Position numbers and translations under genes: made by a program | Source of the DNA: Escherichia coli | GTDB taxonomy: Bacteria > Pseudomonadota > Gammaproteobacteria > Enterobacterales > Enterobacteriaceae | Reading direction: 5' to 3' (one strand) | DNA: 64,000 bases | NCBI RefSeq assembly: GCF_003334405.1 | Contig: NZ_QOWM01000003.1 | The notes under the pieces: generated by a model | The model's input: only the letters and a program-made list of their open reading frames with translations | Database searches by the model: none | Told to the model about the DNA's origin: nothing | In this document: positions 34,424 through 40,719 of the stretch, one piece after another | How the letters are laid out: each line of letters begins with the position of its first letter | Numbering within the stretch: position 1 is the stretch's first letter

Positions 34424-35059
34424 TCAGATGTCAACTTTCTCTTTGTATTCACAAAGATCTTCAATAATACAAGAGCCACAGCGGGGCTTGCGGGCAATGC
34501 AGGTATAACGCCCGTGCAGGATCAACCAATGGTGGCAGTCGACTTTAAACTCTGCTGGAACCACTTTCAGTAGCTTTTCTTCTACCTGTTCGACGTTTTT
34601 CCCCGGCGCAAATTGAGTACGATTACAAACGCGGAAAATGTGCGTGTCGACAGCAATAGTCGGCCAGCCGAATGCAGTGTTTAATACGACGTTGGCTGTT
34701 TTACGACCTACGCCGGGCAGGGCTTCAAGCGCAGCACGATCTTCCGGAACCTCGCCATTATGCTGCTCCAGCAAGATACGGCAGGTTTTGATGATATTTT
34801 CTGCTTTGCTGTTATAAAGCCCAATCGTTTTGATATAGGTTTTCACCCCTTCAACGCCCAGTTCAAGCATCGCTGCAGGCGTATTCGCCACCGGGTAGAG
34901 TTTCGCCGTCGCCTTATTAACACTGACATCGGTCGCCTGAGCGGAAAGCAGTACGGCAATCAGCAATTCAAAAGGCGAACTGAAATTAAGCTCGGTGGTG
35001 GGATGAGGATTGTTCTCACGCAGGCGAGTGAGGATCTCCAGGCGTTTTGCTTTATTCAT
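34424..35059 (-). CDS. nth: Endonuclease III (DNA glycosylase / AP lyase), 211 aa
   Basis: Helix-hairpin-helix region and C-terminal 4Fe-4S cluster loop (C-x6-C-x2-C-x5-C: CIARKPRCGSCIIEDLC). Confidence 0.96.
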   Translation of the reverse strand: MNKAKRLEILTRLRENNPHPTTELNFSSPFELLIAVLLSAQATDVSVNKATAKLYPVANTPAAMLELGVEGVKTYIKTIGLYNSKAENIIKTCRILLEQHNGEVPEDRAALEALPGVGRKTANVVLNTAFGWPTIAVDTHIFRVCNRTQFAPGKNVEQVEEKLLKVVPAEFKVDCHHWLILHGRYTCIARKPRCGSCIIEDLCEYKEKVDI

Positions 35060-35754
35060 CAGACATTCCCTGTTTCACCGTTTGGCAATGCACGTTCTGC
35101 AGCTGCTTCAGCACGGCGCTTTTTCATTCTTTCATCAATCAGGTATTTTCCTGCCAGCATCAGTCCCAGGCCAATAAATGCACCTGGTGGCAGCATCGCC
35201 AGCAGGAAAGGGGAGTCGGTGTGGAAAATCTCCACGCGTAATACTTTTGCCCAGCTACCTAACAGCGCATCTGCACCGTCAAACAATGTGCCATTGCCGA
35301 TAATTTCGCGTAGTGAACCCAGCACGAACATGGCGCAGGTTGCGCCCATACCAATTGAAAAGCCGTCCAGTGCCGAAAGCGCCGGACCTTTTTTGGCGGC
35401 GAAGGCTTCAGCGCGGCCCACAACGATACAGTTAGTGACAATCAGCGGAATAAAAATCCCTAATGATTGATACAGGCCAAAGGCGTAGGCGTTGATCAGC
35501 ATCTGTACAGCGCTGACCACCGAGGCGATGATCATCACGTAAATGGGAATGCGGATCTCGGCTGGCGTCCAGTGACGCAGCGTCGAAATGGTCAGGTTGG
35601 TCAGCGTCAGTACCAGCGTAGTCGCAAGTCCTAAACCCAGAGCGTTAGTGGCAGTGGACGTGACCGCCAACAGAGGACAAAGGCCGAGCAACTGGACCAG
35701 CGCAGAGTTGTTTTTCCACAACCCCTGAACAATAACGTCTTTAATTTCGCTCAC
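35059..35754 (-). CDS. rsxE: Rsx/Rnf electron transport complex subunit E, 231 aa
   Basis: Polytopic membrane ORF; its stop overlaps the nth start by 1 nt (TGATG). Confidence 0.95.
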
Positions 35755-35757
35755 GCT

Positions 35758-37440: not shown

Positions 37441-39567
37441 TTAGTCCTCGTTTACAACCTTCTGCTGGGCGGCTTTTTTGGCCTGAGCGCGGGCAATAGC
37501 CGCGGCAACTGCCGCTTTGCGCGGATCAACCTGTTCTTCTGGTACCGCATTAGCCTGTTGCTGTTCCAGCTTGCGTGCTTTGGCGCGTGCAATAGCCGCT
37601 TCGACGGCAGCTTTGCGCGGATCAACCTGTTCTTCTGGCTCCGCATTAGCCGGTTGCTGTTCCCGTTTGCGCGCTTTGGCTCGGGCAATAGCGGCTTCGA
37701 CGGCGGCTTTGCGCGGATCGACCTGTTGTTCTGGCTCGGCATTAGCCTGTTGCTGTTCCAGCTTGCGTGCTTTGGCACGGGCAATAGCGGCTTCGACGGC
37801 GGCTTTGCGCGGATCGACCTGTTGTTCTGGTTCCGCATTAGCCTGTTGCTGTTCCAGCTTGCGCGCTTTGGCGCGGGCGATAGCTGCTTCAACGGCAGTT
37901 TTACGTGGATCAGCAACGGTTGCTGCGTCGTTAGTTTGCTGCAGTTCTGCCTGTTTCGCTCTGGCTTGCGCTTTACGGGCTTCCCGTGCTGCAATAATTG
38001 CACTGTTATCCGGGCGTTCGCCCGCTTTAATCACAATAGGCTGTGTAGCCTGGGCCTGTTTCTCTTTCACCCGCGCCAGAGCGGCAGCAATCGCATCTTT
38101 ATCTTTGGCTGCAGGTTGAACGGCTGCGCTCTTATGTCGTTCAAGGCGAGCCGCTTTTTCGCGCTCCAGACGAGCCTGGCGCGCTTCGAAACGCGCTTTG
38201 GCTTCTGCGGCGCGCTTTTCTTCCTGACGAATAGCCGCAATTTCAGCTTTTTCCTGACGGAAATATTGCACCAGGGGAATATTGCTCGGGCAAACCCACG
38301 CGCAAGCCCCACATTCAATGCAATCAGCAATGTTATGCGTGGTAGCTTTATCGTGTTGCTGACCTTTGCTGAACCAGTACAACTGTTGCGGCAAAAGATC
38401 CGCAGGGCAGGCGTCAGCACAGGCGCTACACCGGATGCAGCTTTGTTCTTCCTGTGGTTCGCCAAGTTCATTGGCAGAGGGAGCCAACAGACAGTTGGTA
38501 ATCTTTACGACCGGGACATCCAGCCATGGCAAGGTAAAGCCCATTAGCGGGCCACCCATAATCACCATTTGATCGGCAGAGGGGCAGAATCCGGCATCAT
38601 TCAATAAATGACGCACTGGCGTCCCCAGCCGTGCCCAGACGTTGCCCGGGCGAGCGATTGCTTCGCCAGTCAGGGTTACAACACGCTCGGTAATCGGCTC
38701 GCCATCAATAACGGCACGTTTCACTGCATAAGCAGTGCCGACGTTTTGCATTAATACGCCGATATCGGATGAACGCCCGCCATGTGGAACCTGCTTCCCG
38801 GTCAGAATGTAGGTTAATTGTTTAGCACCGCCAGAAGGATATTTGGTTGGAATCACCCGCAGAGAAATATCGTTAGAGTCCGCCAGCACCGCGCGCAGCA
38901 TGGAAATCGCCTGCGGTTTGTTATCTTCAATGCCGATAAGAATTTCGCGTGGCTGCAGAATATGCGCAAGAATGCGAATACCCTCTACGACCTGAGCCGC
39001 GCAATCCTGCATCAAACGGTCATCGGCGGTAATGTACGGCTCGCACTCAGCCGCGTTGATAATCAACGTTTCAATCTTATCTCCGCCACCCTGCAATTTA
39101 ACGCCTGTCGGGAATCCTGCACCGCCCAGCCCGGCAACACCAAACTGATGTATGCGCTCGATTAACTCTTCGCGACTGCGAGTGCGATAATCGGCCCAGC
39201 CGTCGCGCGGGATCCAGCAGTCTTCACCATCGGCATCAATAATCACGCTTAATTCAGCTAAAGCTGAAGGATGAGCCGTAGAGTGGGGCGCAATAGCCGT
39301 AACGGTACCCGAGGTGGGCGCGTGAACAGGCAGCATTTTGCCGCGACCACGGGTAAGCGGCTGGCCGCGCAATACTTTATCGCCGACGCTAACGCACAAC
39401 TCACCTTCAGCGCCAATATGCTGTTTCAGTGGAATAACAAAACGCTGCGCCAGGGGTACCTGGCGCAGGGGTGTACCGTTGGACTGGGTTTTCATCTCCG
39501 GTGGATGGATGCCGCCGTTGAAATCCCAGATTTTATTTTTTCTGAATGCAGAGAATAACTTAAGCAT
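37441..39567 (-). CDS. rsxC: Rsx/Rnf complex subunit C, 708 aa, with a C-terminal 32-aa tandem-repeat region
   Basis: Two 4Fe-4S ferredoxin motifs ([12 protein letters not shown] and [12 protein letters not shown]) and an NADH/FMN-binding-like domain, followed by 4 full and 1 partial copies of [32 protein letters not shown]. Confidence 0.95.
37476..37920. repeat. 96-bp in-frame tandem repeat, 4 well-conserved copies plus a degenerate fifth, inside rsxC
   Basis: The GCGGATC(A/G)ACCTGTT motif recurs at 37521, 37617, 37713 and 37809, an exact 96-bp period; each unit encodes one 32-aa repeat on the - strand. Confidence 0.9.
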
Positions 39568-40138
39568 GGTGTTCCACGGGAATGATACGCACGGGAATGG
39601 TGTTCAGATCCCATTTCCAGGAGTCAGGTGTTTCTGCGACCGGTTGCAACGAGATGCAGTGCGTCGGGCACGGATCAACACATAAATTGCAGCCCGTACA
39701 GAGATCACTCATTACCGTATGCATGGCACGGGTAGCGCCAACGATGGCGTCTACCGGACACGCCTGAATACATTTAGTGCAGCCAATACAGTTATTTTCA
39801 TCAATAACCGCCACCATCCGCGCAGGCGTTATCTCTTGCGCTTCGCCATCCAGCGGCTGCGGCTCGACATTAAGCAACTCGGCAATTTTTAGCATCACAG
39901 CTTCGCCACCTGGGGCGCAACGGTTGATTTTTTCACCGTTACAGCTGATGGCTTCCGCGTAGGGGCGACAGCCGGGATAACCGCACTGACCACACTGGCT
40001 CTGCGGTAAGATTTCGTCAATTTTCTCAACGACCGGATCGTCTTCCACCGCAAAACGGCGGGAGGCATAACCCAGAATGGCGCCAAACGCCAGGCCCAGC
40101 AGGCTCACGGCGGCAACGGCAATCCAGATAGCATTCAT
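39560..40138 (-). CDS. rsxB: Rsx/Rnf complex subunit B (Fe-S protein), 192 aa
   Basis: N-terminal TM helix, Cys cluster (CGQCGYPGC) and two 4Fe-4S ferredoxin motifs ([12 protein letters not shown] and [12 protein letters not shown]); overlaps the rsxC start by 8 nt. Confidence 0.95.
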
Positions 40139-40719
40139 TACAACTTCACCAAACCACTAAAGCCCATAAAGGCCAGAGACATAAGACCTGCGGTAATTAA
40201 CGCAATGGCATTACCGCGAAAAGGTGCCGGGACATCAGCCACAGCAAGGCGTTCGCGGATGGCGGCGAAGAGCACCATCACCAGCGAGAAACCGACAGCG
40301 GCGGAAAAACCGTACAGCGCCGACTGCAAGAAATTGTGCCCGAGATTGATATTCAGCAACGCCACGCCGAGCACTGCACAGTTGGTGGTGATAAGCGGCA
40401 AAAAAATCCCCAGCAGACGGTAAAGCACCGGGCTGGTTTTGCGCACCACCATCTCGGTGAACTGCACGACCACAGCAATCACCAGAATAAATGCCAGGGT
40501 GCGCAGGTAAATCAGATTAAGTGGGATCAAAATCCACGTATCGATAAGCCAGGCGCAAATAGACGCCAGCGTCATCACAAACGTTGTTGCCAGCCCCATG
40601 CCCATCGCGGTTTCCAGTTTTTTGGAAACCCCCATAAACGGACAGAGACCGAGAAACTTGACCAGTACAAAGTTATTGACCAGTACAGTTCCGACAAACA
40701 GTAACAGGTAGTCAGTCAT
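40138..40719 (-). CDS. rsxA: Rsx/Rnf complex subunit A, 193 aa
   Basis: [34 protein letters not shown]... polytopic membrane ORF; 1-nt overlap with rsxB. Confidence 0.95.

Follow-up and report, generated by a model that had tools for sequence, protein, structure and literature searches.

The rsx genes encode the Rnf-type complex of the membrane by which SoxR is held in its reduced state, and nth encodes the DNA glycosylase endonuclease III. References for the rsxABCDGE-nth unit of E. coli K-12 include Koo et al., EMBO J 2003. The unit is given as a single transcription unit, rsxABCDGE-nth, by RegulonDB as quoted in PMC5021804, and Gifford and Wallace (2000, Nucleic Acids Res 28:762) state in their title that nth is the gene with which an operon ends. 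According to the same title, nei (endonuclease VIII) of E. coli is likewise an oxidative-damage glycosylase gene that ends an operon of unrelated genes, although the genes upstream of nei differ from rsx. [quoted passage not shown]

At the level of translation, the closest described systems are the E. coli pairs hyfHI, astDB, ydbH-ynbE and menDH, which are coupled by termination-reinitiation (Huber et al. 2019, 2023). These resemble the rsx and nth pairs in having overlaps of -1, -4 or -8 nt or gaps of at most 3 nt, as well as a Shine-Dalgarno element within the upstream gene, and such pairs are enriched among the subunits of heteromeric complexes. They were measured experimentally, whereas the rsx and nth pairs are known from the geometry of their sequence; no experimental test of coupling for rsxE/nth or any other rsx pair was found in the literature searched. 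Coupling decreases steeply with distance, namely by 5-70% at +2 nt and by 80-100% at +38 nt (Huber et al.). Among five overlapping E. coli pairs that have been tested, four are coupled, while bioBF, which overlaps by 4 nt, is not (PMC6728339). The operon, the terminal position of nth and the -1/-4 overlap rule for coupled cistrons are all already published.

The stretch of DNA analysed here (64,000 nucleotides, hereafter the window) comes from the E. coli chromosome and shows 100% DNA identity with many E. coli chromosomes. It contains the well-known rsxABCDGE-nth operon, and the operon region is present in 5,425 of 5,426 complete E. coli genomes. The genes run on the minus strand in the order rsxA, rsxB, rsxC, rsxD, rsxG, rsxE and nth, with ydgK upstream and dtpA downstream, as in K-12. 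The strand went unmentioned in a preliminary description of this DNA, which had named the genes, read them as an operon with nth last, and seen in the arrangement a link of mechanistic interest between an Fe-S electron-transfer complex and an Fe-S repair enzyme. The gene names, the operon reading and the position of nth agree with NCBIfam, RegulonDB and the title of Gifford and Wallace; for the Fe-S link, synteny is the only support (see below).

All seven proteins score far above the NCBIfam equivalog or subfamily cut-offs. The first cistron, rsxA (40138..40719, 193 aa), scores 364.7 bits with NF003481, whose cut-off is 240, and is followed by rsxB (39560..40138, 192 aa; NF003475, 337.5 bits) and rsxC (37441..39567, 708 aa; NF003454, 867 bits). 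Next are rsxD (36382..37440, 352 aa), rsxG (35758..36378, 206 aa) and rsxE (35059..35754, 231 aa, with a GTG start), each assigned from its open reading frame and its NCBIfam match. The last cistron, nth (34424..35059, 211 aa), encodes endonuclease III and matches NF007978 with 486 bits. RefSeq gives the genes the same coordinates in a strain of identical sequence, and the K-12 annotation agrees. Since each of the seven starts is also the first start codon within its own open reading frame, and the NCBIfam models align from residue 1 (or, for RsxC, from residue 12, with no alternative start ahead of that residue), the start codon assignments are secure. Compared with K-12 (RegulonDB/EcoCyc), the gene order, the six junction distances, the start codons and the flanking genes are the same; the RsxC protein is 708 instead of 740 aa long because its 96-nt tandem array has 4.4 instead of 5.4 copies.

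The six gaps, in operon order, are -1, -8, 0, +3, +3 and -1 nt. The TAA stop of rsxA and the ATG of rsxB share one nucleotide in TAATG (40136-40140), the ATG of rsxC lies inside rsxB so that the two genes overlap by 8 nt (39560-39567), rsxC and rsxD abut in TAAATG with a gap of 0, rsxD and rsxG are 3 nt apart, and the rsxE stop and nth start have one nucleotide in common in TGATG (35057-35061). These are the distances from which coupling throughout the operon had originally been proposed, and all of them are correct. The rsxG/rsxE junction, which had been omitted, has a gap of +3 nt ahead of the GTG start. The rsxE/nth junction was found in 5,424 of the 5,426 complete E. coli genomes.

Within positions 1-50000 of the window, a gap of at most 3 nt occurs in only 2 of the 22 other same-strand neighbour pairs; these two are ydhK/J (-1) and ydhJ/I (+2), and malY/X is at 9 nt. 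Genome-wide, 707 of 2,987 unidirectional E. coli pairs (24%) have gaps between -8 and +6 nt (PMC10666635). Six such junctions in succession would be expected at about 2 in 10,000 if they were independent, which they are not. The packing is tighter than chance, as is usual where an operon encodes a complex of several subunits. End-to-end packing of this kind is typical of genes translated successively from one mRNA, and the finding is correct but ordinary.

Co-transcription of rsxA to nth is known from the literature cited above, and gaps of at most 3 nt leave no room for a terminator and a promoter between the genes. The expression of all seven also changed together in an rpoS mutant (PMC2907692). 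A candidate sigma-70 promoter, TTGTCG-17 nt-GATAAT (40748..40776, minus strand; 9 of 12 consensus matches), is located in the 76-nt spacer between ydgK and rsxA, but the region has no more sigma-70-like sites than expected from shuffles. At the other end, a possible operon terminator, GGGGTAA-N6-TTACCCC (34398..34417, minus strand; z = -2.1), lies 6 nt after the nth stop. As a canonical terminator it is weak: the stem is fine, but the U-rich run on the minus strand comes only about 10 nt past the stem.

It is unlikely, in our view, that nth is partly independent of this transcript, that is, served by a sigma-54 promoter, a weak sigma-70 promoter or a regulatory site in the 3′ part of rsxE and only loosely linked to rsx translation. 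RpoN holoenzyme does give a gSELEX peak, reflecting binding in vitro, between rsxE and nth, and the nth mRNA drops 6.4-fold under nitrogen depletion in a manner abolished in an rpoN mutant (PMC8743547), so that some nth-specific control may exist. However, RpoN at this position was interpreted by the same authors as a repressor and not as acting at an nth promoter. The best sigma-54-like motif, TGGCACATTGTTTGAC (35278-35293, minus strand), has 2 mismatches and is located some 220 nt ahead of the nth start codon; matches of this quality number 331 in the window versus 354 in shuffles, which is the chance level, and the motif was rejected as a sigma-54 promoter for nth. A consensus scan of the minus strand found nothing resembling a sigma-70 site within rsxE, and the published operon assignment has nth as its terminal gene.

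An internal intrinsic terminator lies early in rsxC (codons ~33-41; 39445..39468, minus strand), where a 10-bp GC-rich hairpin is followed by CGUUUUGUU; the hairpin folds with -24 kcal/mol (z = -4.0). It matches the published NusA-dependent rsxC terminator, which is positioned 16 nt after a PPE motif and whose read-through depends on translation (PMC5021804). Translation would mask this terminator.

A weak to moderate Shine-Dalgarno-like element precedes each downstream start and is contained in the 3′-terminal part of the gene before it; such an element contributes to termination-reinitiation but is not obligatory. For rsxD, rsxG, rsxE and nth, the anti-Shine-Dalgarno duplex has a moderate energy of -4.5 to -6.4 kcal/mol, with GAGGA 4 nt ahead of the rsxD ATG and GGAGA 7 nt ahead of the rsxE GTG. 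For nth, the element is CAGGGAA (35066..35072, minus strand), in the last codons of rsxE and 6-7 nt ahead of the ATG; its duplex energy is -5.1 kcal/mol, and -5 is attained by 13% of the 22-nt windows across the operon. The 141 nt around the nth start contain no unusual structure that would hide the Shine-Dalgarno element or the AUG, as the fold of -27.5 kcal/mol equals the shuffle mean (z = 0.00). Coupling through the unmasking of a structured nth ribosome-binding site is therefore rejected.

A usable Shine-Dalgarno element together with unstructured junction RNA makes de novo initiation at nth possible. The genes might then be compacted without being functionally coupled: they would be co-transcribed, with each cistron, nth included, initiated mainly at its own Shine-Dalgarno element, and the overlaps would be a by-product of deletion bias and of the need for these elements to sit inside the upstream genes. 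We regard this explanation as doubtful but worth weighing. The moderate elements ahead of the last four cistrons and the lack of structure at the nth junction are in line with it, as are the independent translation of bioBF and the initiation of about 40% of menDH translation de novo. On the other hand, the elements ahead of rsxB (-3.8 kcal/mol) and rsxC (-3.3 kcal/mol) are weak, which means that help from upstream ribosomes is probably needed at these starts, and the tested overlaps of E. coli are, as mentioned above, mostly coupled.

A further argument against compaction without coupling comes from a survey of the junctions in 80 Enterobacteriaceae species, in which each gene was scanned from its start codon. 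The rsxE/nth gap falls between -8 and +1 nt in all 80 species, namely: -1 in 49, -4 in 25, -8 in 2 and +1 in 4, and this despite a changing RsxE tail. RsxE is 228-237 aa long in these species, and its last ~15 residues are not conserved. The final rsxE codons nevertheless keep GGGAA, GAGAA or GGAAGG ahead of the nth ATG, within an upstream consensus ..CaGgGAA.Gc.T.ATG that is maintained across the 80 species as the remainder of the tail varies. The retention of a purine-rich motif in an otherwise variable tail suggests a constraint on the end of rsxE at the nucleotide level. The last few rsxE codons double as the nth ribosome-binding site. The other junctions surveyed are similarly stable: 79 of the 80 species have an rsxG/rsxE gap of -4 to +4 nt, 79 have an rsxD/rsxG gap of 3-10 nt, and the rsxC/rsxD gap is 0 in 67 of 70 loci. 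Outliers are confined to a few assemblies with apparent frameshifts, chiefly one (L027) in which the rsxG/rsxE and rsxD/rsxG gaps are 166 and 622 nt. The position of the rsxE start is occupied by ATG in 74 of the 80 species, as opposed to GTG in the E. coli examined here.

Taken together, these results lead us to conclude that the rsx-nth operon is probably expressed from one mRNA by termination-reinitiation between successive cistrons, with nth as the last. Judging from the geometry of the junction and its conservation, translational coupling from rsxE to nth is likely. In the proposed mechanism, a single mRNA would begin upstream of rsxA, and ribosomes finishing one cistron would reinitiate at the next overlapping or abutting start, with the embedded Shine-Dalgarno element as an aid. 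Uninterrupted translation would also prevent RNA polymerase from halting at the internal rsxC hairpin. Reinitiation and read-through of this hairpin would together tie the output of Nth to both the transcription and the translation of rsx. It should be noted that Nth, unlike the partners in heteromeric-complex pairs, is a soluble enzyme of DNA repair that is not known to belong to the Rsx complex; thus, the last junction falls outside the stoichiometry argument. Any insertion or premature stop codon in an rsx gene should be assumed to be polar on nth, through the loss of coupling and the exposure of the rsxC terminator. Since rsx lesions are presumably polar, the phenotypes of rsx mutants, such as those in mutation rate or oxidative damage, need non-polar controls.

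With respect to the Fe-S link, a functional partnership could mean, for example, that Nth is made at the membrane next to the Rsx complex and that Rsx sets the redox state of the Nth [4Fe-4S] cluster; the supply of Nth would then be deliberately scaled to the output of Rsx. Such a partnership would be analogous to the action of Rsx on the [2Fe-2S] cluster of SoxR and, if true, would join membrane electron transfer to Fe-S DNA repair enzymes. We consider it very unlikely, and the idea that Rsx and Nth are linked by redox chemistry is speculative. The evidence behind it is synteny, and a review describes the role of endonuclease III in Rnf as ‘obscure’ (PMC4014512). The rsxE-nth linkage itself holds throughout the 80 Enterobacteriaceae species, and five of the six distant loci show it as well; beyond this synteny, nothing in these loci supports a partnership. 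The distant loci were obtained as RnfE representatives at ~50% identity whose contigs were inspected, with two (L089 and L090) left out on account of error-ridden, fragmented genes. Co-occurrence among them is not universal, as one (L088) has rnfE without an adjacent nth and another (L085) has an extra open reading frame between the two genes. Fusion of the two proteins was not found either: none of 30 long RnfE-containing representatives has Nth homology within the RnfE protein. The only ‘Rosetta stone’ candidate, a lone 396-aa protein (P0062) on a 3.6-kb metagenome contig, was rejected as an RnfE-Nth fusion, a frameshift probably being the simplest reading.

In the five distant loci where nth follows rnfE, it mostly does so without overlap. 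The distances are +14, +7, +3 or -4 nt, or the genes are separated by the intervening gene, so the rnfE/nth overlap itself, as judged from these sequences, is not ancient. The distant pairs with spacers of 3-14 nt are a further point in favour of compaction without functional coupling. Within the rnf genes proper, the C/D, D/G and G/E junctions of one distant locus are all overlaps of -1.

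RefSeq annotates nth, rsxE, rsxG, rsxD, rsxC, rsxB, rsxA and ydgK on the minus strand, in agreement with the coordinates of the ORF list, and window positions 34300-41400 match many complete E. coli chromosomes at 100% identity. All seven products (RsxA, B, C, D, G, E and endonuclease III) pass the curated NCBIfam cut-off, with alignments that begin at residue 1 in every case except RsxC, where they begin at residue 12. Each of the seven genes begins at the first start codon of its ORF, and in rsxC there is no alternative start codon ahead of the region matching the family model. 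Thus, the junction distances do not depend on an arbitrary choice of start.

Read on the minus strand, rsxA/rsxB overlap by 1 nt (TAATG), rsxB/rsxC overlap by 8 nt, and rsxC/rsxD are directly adjacent (0 nt; TAAATG). Three nucleotides separate rsxD from rsxG and likewise rsxG from rsxE, which has a GTG start, while rsxE/nth overlap by 1 nt (TGATG). All of the overlaps and gaps given in the preliminary description, including the TGATG, are correct, although it left out the rsxG/rsxE junction and the strand. The six distances are identical in K-12 MG1655, and an 81-nt probe spanning the rsxE/nth junction has a match of at least 95% identity in 5,424 of 5,426 complete E. coli genomes. The GTG start of rsxE (35752-35754, minus strand) is shared by E. 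coli and its closest relatives; the corresponding codon is ATG in 74 of 80 Enterobacteriaceae species.

For comparison, we used the 22 other annotated same-strand neighbour pairs in window positions 1-50000. Only ydhK/ydhJ (-1 nt) and ydhJ/ydhI (+2 nt) lie within 3 nt of each other; malY/malX are 9 nt apart and the remaining pairs 36-609 nt. Since few pairs in the window, and 24% of unidirectional E. coli pairs genome-wide (gaps of -8 to +6 nt; PMC10666635), are so tight, six such junctions in a row are a clear operon signature. Signatures of this kind are common, and are enriched among genes for heteromeric complexes. The ydhK/ydhJ/ydhI genes (22450-25558, minus strand), encoding FUSC family, HlyD family and DUF1656 proteins, are the sole other genes packed as tightly in the first 50 kb.

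Co-transcription of rsx and nth is established by the literature: rsxABCDGE-nth is a RegulonDB unit, as used in PMC5021804, the title of Gifford and Wallace (2000) names nth as the terminal gene of the operon, and all seven genes rise jointly in an rpoS mutant (PMC2907692). The earlier reading of nth as the last gene of an rsx operon is thus largely right, in view of the RegulonDB unit and that title.

The junctions were also compared across 80 Enterobacteriaceae loci, one genome per species. The rsxC/rsxD gap is 0 in 67 of 70 loci, rsxD/rsxG are 3-10 nt apart in 79 of 80 species, and rsxG/rsxE range from -4 to +4 in 79 of 80; the outliers are a few assemblies with apparent frameshifts, chiefly L027. 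At rsxE/nth, the gap is -1 (n = 49), -4 (n = 25), -8 (n = 2) or +1 (n = 4). RsxE is 228-237 residues long in these species and its C-terminal ~15 residues are fast-evolving and poorly conserved, yet a purine-rich GGGAA, GAGAA or GGAAGG is kept in the final rsxE codons, 3-9 nt before the nth ATG (consensus ..CaGgGAA.Gc.T.ATG). This combination fits a nucleotide-level constraint overlying a free protein tail, in which a putative ribosome-binding site and stop/start proximity, not the RsxE protein, would be under selection. The last two or three rsxE codons (window 35060-35100, minus strand) almost always encode G-N, G-K or E-K, as GGGAAx or GAGAAA, across the 80 loci, and it is these codons that make up the Shine-Dalgarno-like element of nth. 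Anti-Shine-Dalgarno pairing energies are -3.8 (rsxB), -3.3 (rsxC), -5.9 (rsxD), -4.5 (rsxG), -6.4 (rsxE) and -5.1 kcal/mol (nth), with a background mean of -2.7 kcal/mol inside the operon.

In a coupling assay of other overlapping E. coli pairs, coupling was strict in three of five, partial in one and absent in bioBF (PMC6728339); it decays steeply with distance. By these rules, the rsx/nth junctions lie within the efficient range. Because of this, and because the RNA at the rsxE/nth junction shows no special structure on folding (z = 0.0), termination-reinitiation is the best-supported route, over the unmasking of a structure: ribosomes terminating at the upstream stop would reinitiate at the next start, helped by the embedded Shine-Dalgarno element. 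It is therefore plausible that nth translation depends on rsxE translation.

Continuous translation probably has a second role, in keeping a terminator inside rsxC from acting. At 39445-39468 (minus strand; codons ~33-41), a 10-bp perfect GC-rich hairpin (-24 kcal/mol, z = -4.0) is followed by the U-tract CGUUUUGUU. This matches the NusA-dependent intrinsic terminator already described after a PPE motif, whose activity rises when ribosomes stall at that motif in delta-efp cells (PMC5021804). Such a terminator would render all downstream genes, including nth, sensitive to ribosome stalling.

The 76-nt ydgK-rsxA spacer (40720-40795, minus strand) holds a promoter-like TTGTCG-17-GATAAT, and GGCGGCTTTTTTATTT directly ahead of the rsxA ATG. 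A simple sigma-70 scan of the minus strand of rsxE found no site. Shimada et al. placed a gSELEX peak of RpoN holoenzyme where rsxE meets nth, and reported that nth mRNA is repressed in an RpoN-dependent manner (PMC8743547). The best sigma-54-like motif, TGGCACATTGTTTGAC (35278-35293, minus strand; two mismatches), lies inside rsxE, ~220 nt upstream of the nth ATG; such matches occur in the window at chance frequency, with no enrichment. There may be a minor regulatory input specific to nth. Six nucleotides past the nth stop, the hairpin GGGGTAA-N6-TTACCCC (34398-34417; z = -2.1) has an A-run to one side and, displaced from the stem, a U-rich run to the other. It was scored as a terminator of the plus strand, from which no gene is read towards it; for the minus-strand operon it is only a possible terminator.

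Wider sampling, using 50%-identity cluster representatives and contig look-ups, gave six informative distant loci with RnfE ~50% identical. In five of them nth follows rnfE, at +14, +7 (a 644-kb genome of 22% GC), +3 and -4 nt, or with a 176-aa ORF in between. The sixth, in GCA_041447265.1, shows -1 overlaps at rnfC/D, D/G and G/E and lacks nth, with a TetR-like gene 353 nt downstream, indicating that tight coupling inside rnf predates the nth link and is more general than it. Linkage of nth to rnfE is thus widespread without being universal, and their overlap is mainly a feature of the enterobacterial lineage.

The link between the Fe-S complex Rsx and the Fe-S enzyme Nth, also named in the preliminary description, is speculative as a redox link, with conserved gene order as its basis here; a review describes what endonuclease III does in Rnf as obscure (PMC4014512). 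The operon, coupling and redox points are already known or derivable from known rules. The long RnfE representatives contained no fusion to Nth. P0062, a 396-aa gene call on a 3.6-kb ENA metagenome contig, joins RsxE (92% identity) to Nth, with Rnf-Nqr, HhH-GPD and HHH domains. Instead of a genuine fusion, it is most likely, and most simply, a frameshift, in which one erroneous or mutated base where the genes overlap by 1 nt joins the two frames.

The 3′ part of rsxC carries a 96-nt (32-aa) tandem array (37487-37912, minus strand) of 4.4 copies, giving an RsxC of 708 aa, whereas RsxC of K-12, with 5.4 copies, is 740 aa long. Copy-number variation in this array is probably behind the low count of genomes (only 1,120 of 5,425 in E. 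coli) that align in one piece to the 7.1-kb query. Of 80 Enterobacteriaceae species, 60 have an in-frame array in this stretch of rsxC (period 90-288 nt, 1.8-6.6 copies), and in Erwinia amylovora a 40-aa RsxC repeat is already in use for strain typing (PMC10587187).
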